From an uncultured Nitrososphaerota archaeon (GTDB lineage: Archaea > Thermoproteota > EX4484-205 > JAAOZO01): a stretch of DNA of 16,585 nt. Made by a program: the position numbers and the translations under genes. A model generated the notes under the pieces. The model worked only from the letters and a program-made list of their open reading frames with translations. It did no database searches and was not told the origin of the DNA. Positions 1,698 through 16,583 of this stretch are shown one piece after another; within the stretch, counting starts at the first letter, position 1, and every line of letters begins with the position of its first letter. The stretch lies in the NCBI GenBank assembly GCA_964408285.1, contig CAYOYV010000012.1, positions 1 to 16,585 of the forward strand, in the 5' to 3' direction.

Positions 1698-4091
1698 CTA
1701 GAGACTCACTCTAATCCTTGTCCTGCGTTCGGGTGTTATCCCCTCAAGAGTCAAGCTGCCCTGCCCATAACTCCACTTAGCTCCTGTGACTCTTTTCGGT
1801 TTCACCACATTCATCAGTTTCACATTCCACGTCTTCTTCGACGGTCCTAACGTTACCTCTAAGTTCCCTTTGCTCTTTGTGAAGGAGATCGAGCATGCCT
1901 CTCCGTCGAAAGAGTATCTGAAGGTCCCCCGGTTCTTGGGGTAGATCATAGCAGTGATTTCTCTGAAGGGTTTCTCGCCGACATATTGCACGGGCTCAGT
2001 GATGGGGATTATCGCATCTTCTCGTATCCAGAGCGGGATGCTCGAGAGGGACACCTTCTGCCTAATCCAAACTCTCCCGCTCAACTCTTTCCTAGGTCTC
2101 CAGAAATCTGCCCACCAACCGCCAGGAAGATAATATGAAACCTCTCCCCCCTCACTTAACACGGGGATGACCATAAGGCCTTTGCCGAGCATGTACTGGC
2201 TGTCTATTCTCCAAGTTGTCGGGTCATTCTGGAACTCCAAGACCATTGGCCTCACCATTGGAACACAATCGTCGCAGGACCGGACAGCCAAAGAGCACAA
2301 ATAGGGAATTAGGGAATATCTGAGCTCGTCAAACTTCTTGAATATCTTGAGGGCTTCTTCTCCGTACTCCCAAGGCTCTCTGGGCGGCGATCCATGGGCG
2401 CGCGAAAGGGGACCCAGCAGCCCCCACTGTGCCCATCTGACATATAGTTCGGGGGTAGGTCTATCTCCTTGGAAGCCCCCAATGTCGTGGCTCCAGAAAG
2501 GTACTCCTGACATTGAGTAACTTAACACACCCCATAGCGTGGCTGCCATGTGCTTGTAAGTGGAGTGAGAATCCCCTGCCCACTGGGCCGGGTAAGCTTG
2601 TATCCCCGCGTACCCTGGCCTGCCCCACACTAGACCTTCGCCATAGAAATCCCTGACAGCTTCGAATACCGTGGACGAATATTCCACCGCATATGCGTTG
2701 TGCGCCTCAAGGCCGGTACGGCCATCATAGAAGGCTGCTTCCTCTGGTATGGCCTCCCCCATGTCGGCTTTGAAGACCCTCACTCCCTCTTCCATGCGTC
2801 TCTTGAGTATGGCCTTATACCACTCTCTAGCCTGCGGGTGGGTGAAGTCAACTATTCCACAAGAGCTATGTACAAAATCAACTATATCGACGGCTTCTCC
2901 ATTCTTTTTCTTCAGGAGATATCCCCTTTCAACGGCCTCCCTGTAGAGTTCTGTCTCCTTGGGAATGTAGGGCTGCATCCAAAGGGAAACCTTGAAGCCC
3001 ATGTCAGAAAGCTCTTTGAGCATTTCTCTTGGATTCGGAAAGGCGTCAGTATTCCATTCTAAGTCGCAATAGTGATGCGGCCTTAACCATGAGGGATCTA
3101 TGTGAATGACATCACATGGGATTCTTCTCCGCCTTAGCTCACGAGCTACGTTCATTACCTGCTCTCTCGACTTATACTCTGCCCTTGATTGCCAGAAACC
3201 GAAACTCCAGAGTGGTGGAAGCCTAGGTCTGCCGGTGATACCCATATATGTGGAGATTACTTCCTTGAGGCTAGATCCAAGTATCACAATGTACTCCAGT
3301 TTCGGAGACCACGCTTCAAAAGACAGGCTTGTCGAGGAATACCCCGAGCCCACCTCAAAAACGATCTTCCCACCAAAGTTGACGAATACTCCATAGTTAC
3401 GCGTAGAGGCGTAGAAGGGGATGCACTTGTAGGATCTATCACCTCCTGTCAATGTGGCGTCGCTATTCCATAACAGGATTGCCTGCCCCCTTTTGTCCAG
3501 TGGCGTGAACTTCTCGCCAAAGCCATAGATTGCCTCGTCGGGCTCAAGGCCAAAGCTCTCCACCAGATGTAAATCCTCTCCGACCTTCTTGAATGAAAGC
3601 GGAAAGACAGGAAAGTATGTTCGCTTAAGACCCTCGCCATATTCTTCGAGGAGCACTCTATCGTTCTTGTCTAGGAACCTTAGGTTCCAGGGTTCTGAAT
3701 GAACTTCCACCCTAGCTCTCTCAGAGTCAAGGATTAGCGACCCGTTTCGCTTCTCGAGTTTCACTTTCCTCGTCTCATAATTCATCGGACGATCCTCGTT
3801 AATCCTCACTAGGACAGCATTTTCACATATGAACGAGAGTTCCACGCGTAAAAAAGGACCACCGCTTGTTGTACTCGCCTTAAGTCTAAGGCTTCGTCCA
3901 TTGAAGTCCGATGACTCGATTCTACTAGGCCTGTAGTAGCTCCATCTGGTCACGTCGAATATTGGCTCAATGTCCCTCTTGTGAAGATACCTATCAAGGT
4001 AGTACTCAAACTCATTCAGTGACTTGAACGGACGTGGGGGTTTCCAGGACGTTTCTTCATCCATGTCTGTTTTCAGGCGGTTTGTTCTCAC
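1698..4091 (-). CDS. Glycoside hydrolase family 31, YicI-like alpha-xylosidase/alpha-glucosidase
   Basis: YGFGE, SYKCIPFY, PPLWSFGFW, IPCDVIHID, nucleophile motif FKADMGE, acid/base WAGD, WSHDIGGF and PELYVRWAQWG. The start is GTG 4091 or ATG 4064. Substrate is inferred. Confidence 0.92.
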   Translation of the reverse strand: MRTNRLKTDMDEETSWKPPRPFKSLNEFEYYLDRYLHKRDIEPIFDVTRWSYYRPSRIESSDFNGRSLRLKASTTSGGPFLRVELSFICENAVLVRINEDRPMNYETRKVKLEKRNGSLILDSERARVEVHSEPWNLRFLDKNDRVLLEEYGEGLKRTYFPVFPLSFKKVGEDLHLVESFGLEPDEAIYGFGEKFTPLDKRGQAILLWNSDATLTGGDRSYKCIPFYASTRNYGVFVNFGGKIVFEVGSGYSSTSLSFEAWSPKLEYIVILGSSLKEVISTYMGITGRPRLPPLWSFGFWQSRAEYKSREQVMNVARELRRRRIPCDVIHIDPSWLRPHHYCDLEWNTDAFPNPREMLKELSDMGFKVSLWMQPYIPKETELYREAVERGYLLKKKNGEAVDIVDFVHSSCGIVDFTHPQAREWYKAILKRRMEEGVRVFKADMGEAIPEEAAFYDGRTGLEAHNAYAVEYSSTVFEAVRDFYGEGLVWGRPGYAGIQAYPAQWAGDSHSTYKHMAATLWGVLSYSMSGVPFWSHDIGGFQGDRPTPELYVRWAQWGLLGPLSRAHGSPPREPWEYGEEALKIFKKFDELRYSLIPYLCSLAVRSCDDCVPMVRPMVLEFQNDPTTWRIDSQYMLGKGLMVIPVLSEGGEVSYYLPGGWWADFWRPRKELSGRVWIRQKVSLSSIPLWIREDAIIPITEPVQYVGEKPFREITAMIYPKNRGTFRYSFDGEACSISFTKSKGNLEVTLGPSKKTWNVKLMNVVKPKRVTGAKWSYGQGSLTLEGITPERRTRIRVSL

Positions 4092-10114: not shown

Positions 10115-10256
10115 TTGTTCCAGCCTTTCGATGCCGGGATTTTAAGGATTTAGGACGCACTGTTAGTGCACGCAGTTGGATGTCTTCACGTTATCGCACG
10201 GTGAAGGATAGGTGATTGGAAGGCATATATCCCTTCAAGGATTCGCACTCGCAATC

Positions 10257-11633
10257 ATGAGCTCCTCTGCGGACAAGAGACGGGAGTCTTCCTGGGCAAG
10301 CCGGCTAGCTTACTCCGTAGGAGCGATCCCTTCTGCCTTGCCCTATAGCGCCATCGCCTCGTACTTTCTTTTTTACTACGAGCTGACTTTGGGCCTTAAC
10401 GTTCAATACTTCACCCTGCTTTGGGTGATTTATTCAATCTGGAATGCGATAAACGATCCACTTGCCGGTTACATAATGGACAGGACTAGGACTAGATGGG
10501 GGAGAAGGACTCCTCACATTCTGTTCTGGGCAATACCCTGCGGACTGCTCTTCTTCCTGATATGGTTCGTTCCCTTCAAGGATCCATTCCAGATATTCAT
10601 GTACGGCCTGTTGGTCATATGTCTCTACGATGCGGCATGGACGTTCGCCCTGGGAGCGTGGAACGCGCTCTACGCCGAAATGTATGAAACGACCGGAGAA
10701 AGGGCAAACGTCGTCATGGTGAAGGATGCCATAGCGTTTCTGTCGTCAGCTGTGGGAATGATGATCCCGCCCGTGCTCGCAGCGACCTTCGGATGGCCAG
10801 GTATGGGAGCGATAATAGGAATCACGATACCGATAACGCTGTTCATATCTCTCCTCGGCACAAAGGAGAAAGCCGAATACAGCATCGAGGAGCCGCTAGG
10901 GTTAGTTTCCGCCATCAAGAGCACTTTCGAAAATAAGCCCTTCCTGTACTCAGCTTTTCTCCTCATTATGACGGAGTACGCTTTTGGGACATTGACCATG
11001 ATTCTGCCGATATATGGCAGGTTTGTCTTGGGCCTGAAAGTGGAAGAGACTGGCTTTACGATGATAGGCGTTGTCATCGCAGTGTTACTGGGATTGCCGT
11101 TCTGGAGCTATATGTACAAGAGACTCGGGGAGAAAACAACCTTTCTCCTCACAACTGGGGTCTTCGCGGTTGGGCTCATCCCGATCTTCGTTGCCTCCGA
11201 CATGACCCAGCTGGTGTTGCTATCAATTGTGCCGGGCTTCGGCGTTTCAGGGACGTTGATGTCTGAGCCTGTCTTGAGCATTGTTATAGACTACGATGAG
11301 ACCGTGACGGGTAAGAGGCGCGAGGCAATGTACAGCGGCATCCTCACTTTCATATCTAGGCTGACCTTGGTGCTAACTGGCCTAACTCAACTCGTGGTTC
11401 AAACGACCACCGGCTTCATACCGGATGTGAATGCGGTCCAGCCAGCGGGTGCATTGATAGGTCTCAAATTGACCATCTCGCTTTTTCCGTGCCTAGCCCT
11501 GCTCCTAGGGCTGCTCGTTTTCACGCGATTCCCTTTGACGAAACAGGAAGTTTCGAAGATGAGGGCCAAGCTAGAAGAGATTCATATCGAGAAAAGGAGG
11601 AAGCTCGAGGAGACTTCTCGCCAAACCACGTGA
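10257..11633 (+). CDS. MFS transporter, glycoside-pentoside-hexuronide (MelB/GPH) family
   Basis: WNAINDPLAGYIMDRTRTRWGRR, ER in the loop after TM4, and IDYDE..TGKRREAMY motifs, with about 12 TM. The likely start is ATG 10257 (TATA-like CATATAT at 10224-10230). Confidence 0.92.
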   Translation: MSSSADKRRESSWASRLAYSVGAIPSALPYSAIASYFLFYYELTLGLNVQYFTLLWVIYSIWNAINDPLAGYIMDRTRTRWGRRTPHILFWAIPCGLLFFLIWFVPFKDPFQIFMYGLLVICLYDAAWTFALGAWNALYAEMYETTGERANVVMVKDAIAFLSSAVGMMIPPVLAATFGWPGMGAIIGITIPITLFISLLGTKEKAEYSIEEPLGLVSAIKSTFENKPFLYSAFLLIMTEYAFGTLTMILPIYGRFVLGLKVEETGFTMIGVVIAVLLGLPFWSYMYKRLGEKTTFLLTTGVFAVGLIPIFVASDMTQLVLLSIVPGFGVSGTLMSEPVLSIVIDYDETVTGKRREAMYSGILTFISRLTLVLTGLTQLVVQTTTGFIPDVNAVQPAGALIGLKLTISLFPCLALLLGLLVFTRFPLTKQEVSKMRAKLEEIHIEKRRKLEETSRQTT

Positions 11634-11752: not shown

Positions 11753-12571
11753 TCATCTCGCTGCCTTTCCAAGTTGGTAGTGGAAAATACCTGACGCTTT
11801 AGCCAACGGCGGAATGTGGCGCATCCATTGATGACCCAAGCGCGGCTCCGGACGGTCGAAGTAGAACCACTCATCCAACAGGCGGATGCCGTTGGCCCAG
11901 CCTTCCAGATCTTTGCCGTGTTTCAATCCCCAGTGAAAGCGGGCCCCGATTTTGGAGAAGGCGAGTTTGAGGTTGCTCGTCCAGACCATGAACGGGTTCA
12001 CGGCATCGCAGACCAACTCGGAGCCAGGGAAACGTTCCTTCAACGTCAACACCAACGATTTGACCTGTGCTTCTTCAAAGTATTGCAAAACCCCCTCGGC
12101 CAGAAAGAGAAAAGCAGACTGACGATGGGCACTTACAGTGTTCAGCCAAGTGTTATCGAGTACAGAACAGGCCAAGAGATGATAGCGCGCCCCTTCGTCC
12201 CCTATGAGCTTTCGGCGCAGTTCGATGACATCCGGCAAGTCAAGGTCATACCATTCCGCCTTGCCGTTATCCACGCGCTCAAAACGAGTATCTAGGCCGC
12301 ATCCGATGTGGACAACGACCCCCTCCGGGTATTTTGCTAGAAAATCCCGTGCATGGCGGTCTAATTCTCTTGTACGCAGGACAATGGATACTTGGTCATC
12401 CTCTCCGAACTTGAACCTCGAGAAATCATAGTCTATCCGCTTTACCAACGCAACGGCTTTCTCGTCTCTGATCAGAGCATCGGGGCGCTGTGATTCAGTG
12501 GCTCTAAGGTAAATCGTCGTGAGCAAAGTTTCAGACACACCACTTAGTGCTTGAGAACTGATATCTGGCAC
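11753..12571 (-). CDS. Class I SAM-dependent methyltransferase, leucine-carboxyl-MTase/TcmP-like family
   Basis: GVSETLL..IY.RA.E, VVHIGCGLDTRFER, WYDLDLPDVIELRR and FLAEGVL.Y. The likely start is GTG 12571 (the ORF track extends to 12640). Confidence 0.9.
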   Translation of the reverse strand: MPDISSQALSGVSETLLTTIYLRATESQRPDALIRDEKAVALVKRIDYDFSRFKFGEDDQVSIVLRTRELDRHARDFLAKYPEGVVVHIGCGLDTRFERVDNGKAEWYDLDLPDVIELRRKLIGDEGARYHLLACSVLDNTWLNTVSAHRQSAFLFLAEGVLQYFEEAQVKSLVLTLKERFPGSELVCDAVNPFMVWTSNLKLAFSKIGARFHWGLKHGKDLEGWANGIRLLDEWFYFDRPEPRLGHQWMRHIPPLAKASGIFHYQLGKAAR

Positions 12572-12825
12572 GTTTATGATCCTTGAGATCAAAAGCGGAG
12601 CTTCCTTAAATCGATATCTTTCAGCTTTACTTTGTGTCAAATCGCCTCGATTCTTCAGTGGTTCGACCGATTGCGAAGATCATATATCGCGCGGCTTCCA
12701 AACGGGATTTCACTCTTCCTGCCTAGTGGGCCCCCCGTGCTTTTCAGAGTCCAGGCGGGAGTCTTGCGGAATTTAGCTTGGCACTAGTGTCTACCGCGAC
12801 GCCGTGTCTCAATTAGGAGATAATG

Positions 12826-12833
12826 TTTTAAAC
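12826..12833 (+). promoter_or_regulatory. Putative TATA box (TTTTAAAC) of the proBA operon
   Basis: Consensus-like TATA ~45 nt upstream of ATG 12879. Confidence 0.55.
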
Positions 12834-12878
12834 GAATGTTCATGCAGTCCGGTTCAAGTGGCTCGGTAGTTGGGTAGA

Positions 12879-13754
12879 ATGGGCACGGTAATAGTCAAGG
12901 TTGGCACAAAGGTTCTCACAAATTCCCGGGGCTGGATAAGTCCGAGCGGAATAAAGCGCATAGTTCAGCAAGTAGCCGAGAACCGGCGAAGTGCCTCCTC
13001 GTTCATAATCGTCACGTCTGGCGCCATTGCTAGCGGGCTCTCTAAGCTTGCGATAAACGCTTCTCCAGAAGATCTTTCGCTCACGATGAAGCAGGTTTGC
13101 GCGGCAATAGGGCAACCTTCCTTGATGCATCTATACAATCGTTACTTGAGCAAATGTGGGATAGAGGTCGCTCAGATCCTCCTGACAGAGGAGGATTTGG
13201 CGAACAAGCACCGATACAGGAATTTCTGGAGAACTCTTACTGCTCTTCTTAAGAAAGGAGTCATCCCCATAATAAACGAAAATGATGCCATATCTATCAA
13301 GGAGCTCGTCCCAGTTAACCCCCGTGTACCAGACTCCGTAAGATTCGGAGATAACGATAGACTCTCCGCGATAATCGCGTCTAGAGTAGGAGCGGACCTG
13401 CTCGTCATACTGACCGACGTCGACGGATTCATGATGCCAACACCAGACGGGGGTCTCAAACTGGTCAACGAGATGAAGAGGATCAATAAGAATACACTAT
13501 CCTATGCAGGTGGTTCGAGTAGGTTGGGATTAGGAGGAATGCTCTCAAAACTTCAGGCAGCCAGAATAGCATCGCGTTCCGGTGTTACAACTGTGATAGC
13601 AAATGGACACCGACGAGACATATTGACAAGAATAATGCGAGGGGAGCGAGTTGGCACCCTAATCAAGCCCGCACCAGGCAAAAGCCAAAAGAAACCTGAG
13701 AGGATAGTGGTTGATAGTTTAAGCCATGACGCTAGTAGAAGAAGAGGTCCTTGA
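12879..13754 (+). CDS. proB: Glutamate 5-kinase, without a PUA domain
   Basis: IVKVGT, VTSGAI, AAIGQ, AQILLT, PIINEND, FGDND.LSA, LTDVDG and GGM.SKL.AA motifs. Confidence 0.95.
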   Translation: MGTVIVKVGTKVLTNSRGWISPSGIKRIVQQVAENRRSASSFIIVTSGAIASGLSKLAINASPEDLSLTMKQVCAAIGQPSLMHLYNRYLSKCGIEVAQILLTEEDLANKHRYRNFWRTLTALLKKGVIPIINENDAISIKELVPVNPRVPDSVRFGDNDRLSAIIASRVGADLLVILTDVDGFMMPTPDGGLKLVNEMKRINKNTLSYAGGSSRLGLGGMLSKLQAARIASRSGVTTVIANGHRRDILTRIMRGERVGTLIKPAPGKSQKKPERIVVDSLSHDASRRRGP

Positions 13755-14982
13755 GAAAGCCAAGGCGGCCAAGGGGGCCTCCCTGAAACTTGGAGTCTCC
13801 CCCTCAACTGCGAGGAACGAGGCTCTCAGGGCCATAACAGAGGCCCTACTCCTCAACATGGATCTAATACTCACTGAGAACCAGAAAGATGTCGCCGAAC
13901 TGAAGAAGAAGGATCCCAATTCGCCGATTATTGACAGGTTACTACTGAACCGGAAGAGAATCGAAGAAACGGTCGATGGATTGCGAGAAGTCATACAACT
14001 ACCTGATGCTTTGGGCGAGATAGTGGCTGGTTGGACGACAAGGCATGGTTTGGAAATCAGGAAGGTCCGTGTCCCCTTAGGAGTAATAGCAGTGATATAT
14101 GAAGCTAGGCCGAACGTAACGATTGACATTGTAGGCTTGGCAATAAAGTCCGGCAACGCTGTCATCTTGAGAGGCGGTTCCGAAGCGATTAATTCCAACA
14201 AGGCTTTGGTTCGAGTGATAAAGGAAGCCATAAGGGGATTGATTCCCGAAGGGGCCATTCAACTCATTGAGAATACTGATAGGACGCTCGTGAACAGGTT
14301 GCTCGAGTTGTATGATTACGTGGATGTAGTCATACCCCGGGGAAGCGCCCAACTAATCAAGTTCGTCAGGGAGAACTCACGCATCCCAATAATAGAGACG
14401 GGCGCCGGGAACGTGCACATATTCGTTAACCATGATGCTGACCTCGACATGGCAACAAGGATAATCATCAACGCCAAAGTGCAGAGGCCATCCGTCTGCA
14501 ATGCGGTCAGGAAGGTCCTCGTCCATGGAAGTATCGCTCAGACCTATTTGCCTGAGTTGGTGAATGCACTTAGGAAATATCACGTCATAGTCAAGGGATG
14601 CGAAGCATGCAGAAAGATAGAACCTACGATTATGGAGGCAGCGGAAGCAGATTGGTATGAGGAATACATGGACCTCACATTGGCAGTAAAGATCGTCCCC
14701 TCTGTAGCTGAGGCGATTGATCACATAAACAAGTATGGGACCCACCATTCTGATGCAATAATAACATCCAACATCGACGACGCAAATCTCTTTGCCTCGC
14801 TGGTTGACTCATCAACGGTATATGTAAATGCCTCCACGAGATTCACTGATGGCAACCAGTTCGGCTTTGGTGCTGAGGTCGGCATAAGCACCCAGAAGCT
14901 CCATGCCAGGGGCCCAATGGGATTGAAGGAACTCACGACAACAAAGTATGTGGTGTTCGGAAATGGCCAAGTTAGGGAGTAG
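13726..14982 (+). CDS. proA: Gamma-glutamyl phosphate reductase
   Basis: VPLGVI..IYEARPNVT, KSGNA.ILRGGSEA, IPRG, catalytic SVCNA, HSDAI, NASTRFTDG and STQKLHARGP. Confidence 0.97.
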   Translation: MTLVEEEVLEKAKAAKGASLKLGVSPSTARNEALRAITEALLLNMDLILTENQKDVAELKKKDPNSPIIDRLLLNRKRIEETVDGLREVIQLPDALGEIVAGWTTRHGLEIRKVRVPLGVIAVIYEARPNVTIDIVGLAIKSGNAVILRGGSEAINSNKALVRVIKEAIRGLIPEGAIQLIENTDRTLVNRLLELYDYVDVVIPRGSAQLIKFVRENSRIPIIETGAGNVHIFVNHDADLDMATRIIINAKVQRPSVCNAVRKVLVHGSIAQTYLPELVNALRKYHVIVKGCEACRKIEPTIMEAAEADWYEEYMDLTLAVKIVPSVAEAIDHINKYGTHHSDAIITSNIDDANLFASLVDSSTVYVNASTRFTDGNQFGFGAEVGISTQKLHARGPMGLKELTTTKYVVFGNGQVRE

Positions 14983-15002
14983 GCCTTTGTTCGGGCCGGA
15001 CG

Positions 15003-15854
15003 ATGGGTCGGATATTGAATGAATCAGAATTTCTAAATGAAGCAATCAGTAAATCAAGAAAGTGGGTGGCTGGAAGAACCAGAGAAGAAGCACTAGAAGC
15101 GGTTTCTGAGCTGAATAGAGGCGGCATCATAGCGACGGTTAGTTTCCTTGGAGAAGATCTGAAGGATTTACCTCGAATTCAGAGCCATCTCTCAGAATAC
15201 AGGTCACTAATACAGAGCATTTCTGCGAGCAATCTCAAGGCCAACATATCGGTGAAACCATCTACCATGGGCATTTCCCTGCGGCCGAGCCTATTCCTAC
15301 AAAATCTTGAGCACTTGCTCAAGGACCTTTCGAAGAGCGCATCGATTGAACTCGTAGTGGATTCGGAGGGACAAAGTTTGGTTTCTAGTGCTTACGACGA
15401 GGCGGTGAAACTCCTGAGGTTAGGCTATGAATTCAGAGTAACAGTCGCATGTAGATTCTACCCCGTCATAAAGGCCAAATTGGAGGAAATCGTAGATTCA
15501 GGGGGTAGGATTAGGATCACAAGGGGGGCCTATGAGGGAGGAGCAGGACTGCCATTTGTTAACTTCATTGAAGATATTCTCGAGCTACAACGAAGGACTA
15601 GGGATCCGATTTTGGCAACGAATAGTGTGCGAGTGATCAACTCACTCGAAGAACACGGCGTTTTGGAGGGATTCAGCGGATTTGAGACTCTATTGGGTAA
15701 GCATGTTGAGCTTGAACGTTACCTGAAGAGCAGGCGCTTGAGGACCTTGAGGTACATCCCTTACGGGGATAGCTGGATCGATTACTGTGCTAGGAGGGAG
15801 AAGTGGTTCTCCGAGAACGCCGGTGAGTTGAAGTCCATATTACTTCGAAGATGA
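15003..15854 (+). CDS. Divergent monofunctional proline dehydrogenase-fold protein
   Basis: WVAG.T.EEAL, FLGE, ISVK, DSE, R.TRGAY, ATNS and YIPYG..W..Y..RR are collinear with ProDH (PutB-type) motifs, several of them degenerate. Confidence 0.8.
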   Translation: MGRILNESEFLNEAISKSRKWVAGRTREEALEAVSELNRGGIIATVSFLGEDLKDLPRIQSHLSEYRSLIQSISASNLKANISVKPSTMGISLRPSLFLQNLEHLLKDLSKSASIELVVDSEGQSLVSSAYDEAVKLLRLGYEFRVTVACRFYPVIKAKLEEIVDSGGRIRITRGAYEGGAGLPFVNFIEDILELQRRTRDPILATNSVRVINSLEEHGVLEGFSGFETLLGKHVELERYLKSRRLRTLRYIPYGDSWIDYCARREKWFSENAGELKSILLRR

Positions 15855-15905
15855 GAATAGCGGACTCCCAAGCGAGAAGCTGGACTAAGTCAACCTAGCG
15901 CGATA

Positions 15906-16583
15906 TTAGATCGTTTTGTTGGCTTTTCGCCCGACAAAGAGGACGACCTTGGAATAATACCCCATACCTTCTTTCTGAATGTCCTTTCCGAATCTTTGCC
16001 AGACCGTCTCAAGGGGCTGAGCACTGATACCATAAATCTTTGGTACATTATCACAGACGGATCTAATCTCCTCCTTTGCCTGTTCTGGAGTGAGTTTCAT
16101 TCCAGTGTAGTACGCCTTTCTTTTCACCAGCTCTAACCCTGCTTTCTTGAGCATACTCTCGTATTCGCCTCCGCTCAGATATGTAGCATTGCAGACGTAG
16201 GAAAAAACCGCCACTTCCAGTCTCTGAGCTTCCGTTTCCATCTCTTCAGGGGGCATTACGGCAAAGCAGAAGTATCCGCCTGGCTTCAAGATTCTGCTCG
16301 CTTCAACGAAGGCCTTATTGACGCCTCCTTTTCCCCTCGTCATGTAGATCTCGTCCAATCCCGTGAAATTCGCTACCACATGAAACTCTCCTTCTGAAAA
16401 GCTCATATCTGTCGCGTCCATCTCAATGATCTCTATCTGGCCCTCAAGTCTCTGATTCTCAACGTTCGTCTTAGCTATTAGGACGTAGTATCGGGAGACA
16501 TCAATTCCTACGATCGTGAGGCTGCTCTCCCGCCTTGCGAGTTCTATCGCGAAATGTCCATCGCCCGTTGCAAGATCAAGAAT
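15906..16583 (-). CDS. Class I SAM-dependent methyltransferase (UbiE-like fold); 5' end lies outside the window
   Basis: The frame is open to the window edge. My translation gives ILDLATGDG (motif I), VGID, MDATDMSF..GEF and RILKPGG. Confidence 0.88.
   Translation of the reverse strand: MLDLATGDGHFAIELARRESSLTIVGIDVSRYYVLIAKTNVENQRLEGQIEIIEMDATDMSFSEGEFHVVANFTGLDEIYMTRGKGGVNKAFVEASRILKPGGYFCFAVMPPEEMETEAQRLEVAVFSYVCNATYLSGGEYESMLKKAGLELVKRKAYYTGMKLTPEQAKEEIRSVCDNVPKIYGISAQPLETVWQRFGKDIQKEGMGYYSKVVLFVGRKANKTI

Follow-up and report, generated by a model that had tools for sequence, protein, structure and literature searches.

A divergent proline dehydrogenase-fold gene follows proB and proA in an uncultured Nitrososphaerota archaeon: a candidate flavin-dependent P5C reductase in place of ProC

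The stretch of DNA analyzed here (the window) comprises bases 1 to 16,585 of contig C12 (CAYOYV010000012.1; 50,868 bp) from the genome of an uncultured Nitrososphaerota archaeon (G000; assembly GCA_964408285.1; 1.82 Mb in 46 contigs, 93.7% complete and 2.6% contaminated). In it, proB and proA are followed on the same strand by a gene with the fold of proline dehydrogenase (ProDH). The synthesis of proline from glutamate is a textbook three-enzyme pathway, the last enzyme of which, ProC, is treated as near-universal, and to our knowledge the ProDH fold is known only for proline breakdown. The best reading of the arrangement is that the three genes would constitute one proline-biosynthesis operon, and we see an even chance that the third gene encodes a flavin-dependent pyrroline-5-carboxylate (P5C) reductase that displaced ProC, a case of non-orthologous displacement. 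This reading is put forward because of the fold, the retention of the substrate clamp and of the arginine at flavin N5, the strict linkage to proBA and the missing proC. The features concerned are as follows.

12826 to 12832, + strand: possible archaeal TATA box (TTTTAAA), 38-47 nt 5' of the proB start codons, picked out by eye from the sequence.
12879 to 13754, + strand: proB, glutamate 5-kinase, ATG start codon at 12879, with TTG at 12870 as the alternative.
13726 to 14982, + strand: proA, glutamate-5-semialdehyde dehydrogenase, overlapping proB by 29 nt.
15003 to 15854, + strand: ProDH-fold gene of 283 amino acids (protein P0003), candidate P5C reductase, 20 nt 3' of proA.
15906 to 16583, - strand: convergent class I S-adenosylmethionine (SAM)-dependent methyltransferase (Methyltransf_25 and Methyltransf_11, E 1e-14 to 1e-15), which runs off the window.

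P0003, the product of the third gene, is genuinely homologous to ProDH, though very divergent, and has a (beta/alpha)8 barrel. In a phmmer search of the PDB, residues 16-270 of P0003 align with the Thermus thermophilus ProDH 2ekg (E 2.6e-11), and the Deinococcus ProDH 4h6q is matched at E 3.7e-11. An AlphaFold2 model made from an 84-sequence alignment (mean predicted local distance difference test score 95.4, predicted template modeling score 0.92) was compared with known structures by Foldseek, giving TM scores of 0.81 for 4h6q and 0.82 for 2g37, with 2ekg in the range 0.81-0.82 (E 1e-15; 21-24% identity); all 48 of the top fold matches listed are ProDH or PutA. Scores on the family profiles are low, at 23.7 bits for Pfam Pro_dh (PF01619; gathering score 27), where only profile positions 2-104 are covered, and 64.8 bits for NCBIfam NF045947 (ProDh_Thermus; cut-off 500). 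Since P0003 falls below both curated cut-offs and lacks two flavin binders that are described as conserved, we do not file it as a functional member of the ProDH family. It matches no ProC model in the Pfam and NCBIfam profile searches, where the Rossmann F420_oxidored and P5CR_dimer domains were not found, and judging from its sequence it may be an analogue of ProC rather than a homologue.

Relatives of this protein are few. When 1.84 billion representatives were scanned in full with HMMER, 1340 matched at E<=0.001 and three at E<=1e-30, P0003 itself among them, while a word-indexed search of 5.8 billion proteins returned one close relative (60% identity). In the metagenome scan, which kept 80 loci of 141 confirmed relatives, nine loci (L023-L031) belong to the same clade as the window gene. 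They carry seven distinct sequences (29-100% identity), with L023 and L024 identical to the window and L030 to L031; compared with P0003, L025 is 59% identical and L026-L030 are 29-33% identical. A tree of 66 rows was built by a quick method from the seven linked proteins, P0020-P0074 of 240-360 amino acids and five named ProDHs, with P0075-P0165 left out. In this tree the seven proBA-linked proteins (P0003, L025 and L026-L030) form one branch with a Shimodaira-Hasegawa-like approximate likelihood ratio test (SH-aLRT) value of 98, P0020 and P0021 join that branch (SH-aLRT 99), and the clade has long stems (0.87 and 1.25 changes per column). In cluster look-ups, 1-3 members were listed per cluster, without names in any source. 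By these searches and this tree, the clade appears as a small, distinct and fast-evolving ProDH-fold group. The gene is under purifying selection, as indicated by a ratio of nonsynonymous to synonymous change (dN/dS) of 0.26 at dS 0.46 between L028 and L029; for the same pair, dN/dS is 0.16 for ProA and 0.06 for ProB. A peptide-pattern scan of genome contigs, with a pattern that would miss sequences of the L028-L030 type, returned seven distant bacterial ProDHs only (21-23% identity) and no clade member, and a clade-profile search for longer proteins gave one canonical PutA only, which is weak evidence against fused forms.

The linkage of this clade to proBA is strict. When the loci were searched by tblastn with the ProB and ProA of the window, the ProDH-like gene of each of the nine clade loci proved to have a co-directional proA as its immediate upstream neighbor, and proB was present in each of the six with enough flank. 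The genes are packed tightly elsewhere in the clade as well, with 2-3 nt from proA to the third gene and a 4-nt overlap of proB and proA in L026 and L028-L030. Of the 71 remaining loci, which hold canonical ProDHs with <=30% identity, 48 extend 1300 nt or more upstream of the gene, and neither proA nor proB occurred at any of these; the sole match to the ProA query came from L057, where an aldehyde dehydrogenase of 23% identity lies on the other strand. Conserved synteny with proBA, which a preliminary description of this DNA had proposed as a check, is therefore present throughout the clade and absent from the canonical loci with enough flank. Apart from proB and proA, the two lineages share no conserved neighbor; at the convergent position a DUF72 gene (L026-L030) takes the place of the methyltransferase in the other lineage. 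Open reading frames called 5' of proB in this second lineage (L026 7428-7832, L030 7570-7854 and the 5' part of L029 7636-8694) are read-throughs of tRNA-Leu(CAG) and not genes. The read-through produces the recurrent peptide '...GVAKPGQR.EAQALVPKGFVGSNPTS...' in L026, L029 and L030, and it inflates the N-terminus of the proB frame called in L029.

The arrangement in the window is not an assembly artefact, since L023 and L024, both metagenome contigs, match the three genes at 100% identity and the gene junctions are spanned, free of indels, by contigs from three other sequencing runs (X4 record 16, 12700-15735; X2 record 6, 14363-15899; X3 record 12, 14286-15127). DNA of the window occurs in freshwater and other sediment metagenomes, with eight non-source runs holding at least half of the sampled words. 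The reading frames, the overlap and the gap between proA and the third gene are all as first described, and so is the convergent, unrelated gene at the end, now recognized as a SAM methyltransferase; it marks the end of the three-gene unit and lies outside it. ProB scores 265.4 bits on TIGR01027 (cut-off 186) over profile positions 2-264 of 363, matches Pfam AA_kinase at E 4e-39 and has no PUA domain. ProA reaches 578 bits on NF001221 (cut-off 289) and 491 bits on TIGR00407, and its nearest named homologues are labeled as Thermoproteota, Brockarchaeota and Nitrososphaeria archaea.

Active-site residues were compared in an alignment of 84 rows (the seven linked proteins, P0020, P0021 and 75 canonical ProDHs). 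Thirteen positions, numbered as in P0003, are invariant in all 84 rows (E51, K85, G90, D120, E122, R171, L230, G232, Y251, P253, G255, R264 and R265), and Y261 is nearly so, being present in all seven linked proteins and in a fraction of 0.99 of the canonical ones. In Escherichia coli PutA, one study names Asp370, Leu513, Tyr540, Arg555 and Arg556 as substrate binders and Arg431 as a contact of flavin adenine dinucleotide (FAD) (PMC3718742); by alignment, the invariant residues of P0003 include the counterparts of these. The motifs that the preliminary description had assigned to the substrate side (LGE, ISVK with K85, D120xE122 and Y261..R264R265) are all borne out. On the flavin side, four replacements run through the clade: His to Asn at 207 in 7/7 linked proteins (canonical His 74/75), Asp to Ser, Asn or Ala at 208 in all seven (canonical Asp 0.99), Gln to Glu at 228 in 7/7 (canonical Gln 64/75), and Glu to Trp at 268, followed by Phe269, in 7/7 (canonical Glu 62/75). 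Cys262, His234 and Arg250 are new residues invariant among the seven. By comparison, A(T/S)HD and RRxxE are both retained in every one of 19 ProDH homologues taken from elsewhere in the phylum, and EFQ in 17 of these. The flavin-side motifs of the window protein had been read correctly as VACRF, RITRGAY, ATNS and GFETL, and the change of RRxxE to RRxxW (W268) had been missed. The idea of an altered flavin side is right in outline. H207N, D208S/N/A, Q228E and E268W hold for the whole clade, while two of the changes first described do not: the Gln of LQxYL is replaced only in the window (Ala, Q149A) and in L025 (Pro), and position 174 is Lys in four and Arg in three of the linked proteins (Arg in the window, Lys in L025).

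The positions that changed have described roles. In the T. thermophilus enzyme (TtProDH), according to one paper, Thr226 and His227 bind the phosphate of flavin mononucleotide (FMN), Lys187, stabilized by Asp228, binds the phosphate of adenosine monophosphate, and His227 and Lys187 are called strictly conserved in the family (PMC5335563). In the chain numbering of the 2ekg alignment, these correspond to N207 (His227), S208 (Asp228) and R174 (Lys187) of P0003, and W268 aligns to PutA Glu559, which the PutA study names as key for FAD binding (PMC3718742). In the nine clade proteins, R171, G175, A205 and T206 never vary, and L028 alone departs at A176 and Y177. From the residues kept and changed, it follows that the substrate side is intact and that the handle for the flavin ribityl-phosphate and adenosine diphosphate moiety is remodeled.

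The preliminary description had noted that proC is absent from the window, and it was not found elsewhere in the genome either. There is no match to TIGR00112 or PF14748 in the window genome, whereas the controls matched 14/14 and 12/14 reference genomes, and tblastn with the ProC of five relatives gave a best E of 0.2. The best PF03807 match in the genome (157.7 bits, cut-off 149.8) is NpdG, the NADPH-dependent F420 reductase, and not ProC. Among 40 relatives, 24 carry proA at E<=1e-20 and 21 of these have proC over the cut-off; the three that do not (G001, G022 and G023) are 88, 70 and 77% complete. The ProDH-like gene is missing from all 24, so that proC and this gene, whose co-occurrence had been proposed as a check, are nowhere found together in this set. 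Neither this check nor that of synteny with proBA refutes the idea first put forward. Across the 40 nearest relatives and a 401-genome sample of the phylum covering the family and the order, a clade-type gene was found in the window genome only, apart from a remnant in G004; canonical ProDH is carried by G026 and 25 other genomes of the phylum. The window genome is the only good-quality genome with proA and without proC, and its ProDH-like gene occupies the slot where some relatives hold proC: G032 and G039 have proB-proA-proC on one strand, and in G006, G007 and G009 proC is convergent and adjoins proA. A gene pattern complementary to that of proC is what a biosynthetic swap predicts. The ProA of the window is 66-71% identical to that of proC-bearing relatives in families f1 and f4 and nests among them in the tree, on which the linked state needs two changes.

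A deletion scar in a neighboring genus adds to this pattern. G004 (57% complete) belongs to the same family as the window genome and to another genus, g3. Its locus L004 (G004:C1:39247-42390) reads Orc1/Cdc6, tRNA-Ser, tRNA-Leu(CAG), a 3' remnant of the ProDH-like gene and two DUF72 genes, and the same position in L030 (7633-10810) holds tRNA-Leu(CAG)-proB-proA followed by the ProDH-like gene. The remnant (~1504-1694, ~29 codons) corresponds to residues ~245-272 and includes the clade-specific RRDPWF.EN; its tblastn E is 1e-7 against the locus and 5.9e-5 genome-wide. The flanking proteins of L004 and L030 share 78%, 60% and 66% identity, and this synteny places the L026-L031 lineage close to the family of the window genome. 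A second g3 genome, G002 (91% complete), has the same junction with no recognizable remnant. Neither proA nor proC was found in G002 or G004, and G002 has no argC. The scar thus indicates that the three genes were lost together, in a lineage that is also without proC, and such a joint loss would fit a single functional unit that did the job of ProC.

If the third protein is a P5C reductase, its reaction can be sketched. ProB and ProA would make glutamate 5-semialdehyde, which cyclizes to P5C; P5C would bind the barrel as proline binds ProDH, and its C5 would receive a hydride from a reduced flavin, so that the half-reaction of ProDH would run in microscopic reverse. We envisage that the enzyme retains a flavin and that the substitutions (His to Asn, Asp to Ser, Glu to Trp and Gln to Glu) alter how the phosphate and ribityl handle of that flavin is bound. 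Re-reduction of the flavin at the same site may then come from NAD(P)H or F420H2, acting as a diffusible hydride donor of low potential in a ping-pong cycle like that of methylenetetrahydrofolate reductase (MTHFR); we propose a diffusible donor because no partner gene is linked to the operon. A carrier of this kind is plausible, given that NpdG and CofD (299 bits, over the cut-off) are both encoded in the genome. More speculatively, a switch to FMN or F420 may lie behind the clade-wide loss of two acidic residues and the histidine around the phosphate handle. The P5C/proline couple lies at about -120 mV and PutA-bound FAD at about -75 mV, and NAD(P)H and F420H2 lie at about -320 to -340 mV. 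With these potentials, the reduction of P5C is strongly favorable and the oxidation of proline by NAD(P) or F420 carriers is unfavorable, which makes the reductive direction the feasible one in a cell without quinone-linked acceptors. The fullest form of the proposal, in which this ProDH-fold barrel is the sole P5C reductase of the cell and the first reductive, biosynthetic member of the ProDH family, perhaps using FMN or F420 in place of FAD and F420H2 or NAD(P)H as donor, has in our estimate a little less than an even chance. An NpdG-type gene adjoins an MtnA/eIF-2B-like gene in the window genome (G000:C28:5498-5800; L005 1153-1824, - strand), and in L026 (~14013-15854) and L030 (13957-15750) these two genes are again paired, 4-5 kb downstream of the operon.

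The rest of the proline metabolism of the window genome bears on this proposal. No P5C dehydrogenase over the cut-off was found, the one general aldehyde dehydrogenase scoring 304 bits against 648, and searches for COX1 (haem-copper oxidase), cytochrome bd, MenA and PutP found none of them. The genome-wide search suggested in the preliminary description, for rocA/putC and ornithine cyclodeaminase (OCD), therefore had a divided outcome, with no P5C dehydrogenase and with an OCD homologue of a low-scoring type. The latter belongs to the paralogue type that scores ~210-220 bits on PF02423 and coexists with proC in many relatives, and its best model, ala_DH_arch, gives 208 bits against a cut-off of 409. 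Relatives carry two OCD paralogue types (~355 and ~215 bits), of which the window genome has the low-scoring one only. OCD/mu-crystallin matches at G008:C3:7813-9789 and G021:C34:136463-138433 fall in two stretches within frames of 674-683 amino acids, which are possibly fused or interrupted.

Family f5 of the same phylum (e.g., G026 and G036; loci L120-L138 and L153) presents a different picture. It has proC in 0/61 genomes (27 genera; 52 genomes of high quality), so proline synthesis without ProC may be common in the phylum; many of these genomes are closed and 99% complete. In the two f5 genomes checked, neither proA nor OCD was found. A canonical-type ProDH is present in 22/57 f5 genomes and absent from 35/57, and these ProDHs match the putative proDH (arCOG06322) that is listed together with rocA in two papers on ammonia-oxidizing archaea (PMC12254950, PMC8397731). 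Weak TIGR00112 matches in f5 turned out to be a HIBADH-family protein and prephenate dehydrogenase, and not ProC. The window genome has no homologue of the f5 HIBADH-like gene.

Several of our results weigh against the displacement of ProC by the third gene. The window genome is ~6% incomplete, and its OCD/mu-crystallin homologue (209 bits) together with ArgC could offer a route to proline from ornithine. The f5 genomes imply that a missing proC alone does not mean a missing proline route in this phylum, which holds at least one route that is invisible to the models used and is not based on ProDH. The test of co-occurrence with proC covered the window genome and its GTDB relatives, with the metagenome contigs of L030 (1.47 Mb) and L031 (1.38 Mb) outside it. 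The clade has been seen in two deep lineages of one family-level group only, and for that reason the nine loci are not independent events. No partner or electron-donor gene is conserved beside the operon between the two clade lineages, and CofH was not found in the window genome. Finally, the clade-wide losses include two flavin binders that are called conserved in the literature, His227 of TtProDH (PMC5335563) and Glu559 of PutA (PMC3718742), and with these replaced the binding of flavin itself could be lost.

These points feed into three other explanations. Proline might be made by some other route, be it an unassembled proC, OCD acting on ArgC-derived ornithine or an unrecognized pathway, and the ProDH-like protein would then be an accessory beside proBA that removes excess proline or P5C, runs a proline/P5C redox cycle or serves in salvage. 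The incompleteness of the genome, the presence of OCD and ArgC, and the f5 family, which has no proC and in 35/57 genomes no ProDH either, all speak for it; we nonetheless think it unlikely, although it deserves to be taken seriously. It leaves proBA with no sink for its product and the tight coupling at all nine loci unexplained. The OCD paralogue is no specific substitute because it coexists with proC in so many relatives, and what operates in f5 probably does not start from proBA, since the two f5 genomes checked have no proA, nor does the window genome share the HIBADH-like gene of that family. Improbable in our view is a catabolic operon, in which proline would be oxidized to P5C and glutamate semialdehyde and then converted by ProA and ProB in reverse, via glutamyl phosphate, to glutamate with a yield of ATP, a form of substrate-level phosphorylation. 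All proline-binding residues are kept, the P5C dehydrogenase of the usual route was not found over the cut-off, and the ProA and ProB reactions are chemically reversible. Yet glutamyl phosphate is labile, neither a high-potential acceptor system (COX1, cytochrome bd, MenA) nor the PutP proline transporter was found, the ProA is an ordinary orthologue nested among those of proC-bearing relatives, and the complementary pattern with proC also argues against catabolism.

The third explanation is that P0003 is a pseudoenzyme without cofactor, a proline- or P5C-binding subunit that regulates or scaffolds ProB and ProA. Such a role would suit the loss of flavin binders (H207N and E268W, with Q149A and K174R in addition in the window), the long stems of the clade and a ProB that lacks the PUA domain. 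Against it stand the flavin-N5 arginine (R171), the GAY motif and the threonine that contacts the FMN phosphate in the T. thermophilus enzyme (PMC5335563), all of them kept across relatives of 30% identity; because R171 and the GAY and AT motifs are retained over such distances, the flavin site is probably kept. The dN/dS of 0.26 also counts against a pseudoenzyme, and the pathway would still miss its last enzyme, so that we consider this explanation very improbable. The reading we prefer, a reductase that displaced ProC, is also that of the preliminary description, whose interpretation is partly supported here and corrected in its details.

The window holds other genes besides the operon. Upstream of it in the window lie an MFS_2 (GPH-type sugar) transporter (10212-11633, + strand) and an LCM-family methyltransferase (11753-12640, - strand), neither of which is conserved beside the operon in the other clade lineage. 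At the far end of the window, a Cys-rich open reading frame of 104 amino acids (1305-1619, - strand) with no Pfam match at E<=1e-5 is flanked by the genes of an aldo/keto reductase (429-1253) and of a GH31 glycosidase (1698-4091).

If P0003 reduces P5C, it would add a third possible last step to proline synthesis, beside ProC and ornithine cyclodeaminase, and it would indicate that changes around the cofactor are able to flip the direction in which a flavoenzyme works. It would also mend the recurrent call of an incomplete proline pathway in metabolic reconstructions of uncultured archaea and supply a natural variant for the study of how ProDH tunes flavin binding and potential. As the clade has no name in the sources searched, current pipelines would label its members as catabolic ProDH or hypothetical proteins. 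In the literature searched, with subscription journals and supplements outside the search, we found no description of a ProDH-like gene linked to proBA, nor of any P5C reductase that depends on flavin.

Compared with the monofunctional ProDHs (T. thermophilus 2G37/2EKG, D. radiodurans 4H6Q; PF01619), the clade has in common the (beta/alpha)8 barrel with N-terminal helices, the substrate clamp (Lys, Arg-Arg, Tyr, Asp and Leu) and the arginine at flavin N5. It differs in the ATHD motif, where His becomes Asn and the next Asp becomes Ser, in the Gln to Glu change of EFQ, in the replacement of the Glu of RRxxE by Trp-Phe, and in the clade-specific Cys262. The clade gene always follows proBA and does not accompany a P5C dehydrogenase or a proline transporter, and the physiological direction proposed for its product would be the opposite one. 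With ProC (TIGR00112; PF03807 and PF14748), P0003 would share the reaction and the place in the pathway, and the proC of G032 and G039 sits in the equal operon slot, but the folds are unrelated: ProC consists of a Rossmann and a dimerization domain, whereas P0003 is a barrel of the flavin-binding type. ProC takes its hydride directly from NAD(P)H, while in P0003 a bound flavin would mediate the transfer. MTHFR (MetF) has an FAD-binding barrel of the same structural superfamily as the ProDH domain of PutA; its ping-pong mechanism works reductively, with hydride passing from NAD(P)H to the flavin and from there, within one site, to an iminium carbon. This makes MTHFR a mechanistic model for a reductive ProDH-fold enzyme. 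No search that we ran gave a sequence match between MTHFR and P0003. The closest parallel in argument comes from haloarchaea, for which a paper on Natrinema relays an earlier suggestion that putA makes up for absent proABC in some species, a suggestion it doubts for its own strain (PMC3402447). That proposal, like ours, builds on a ProDH profile complementary to that of the proline-biosynthesis genes. In the haloarchaeal case, as given there, canonical putA together with P5C dehydrogenase would replace the whole of proABC, whereas here a divergent clade with a remodeled flavin site would replace proC only and would do so within the proBA operon.

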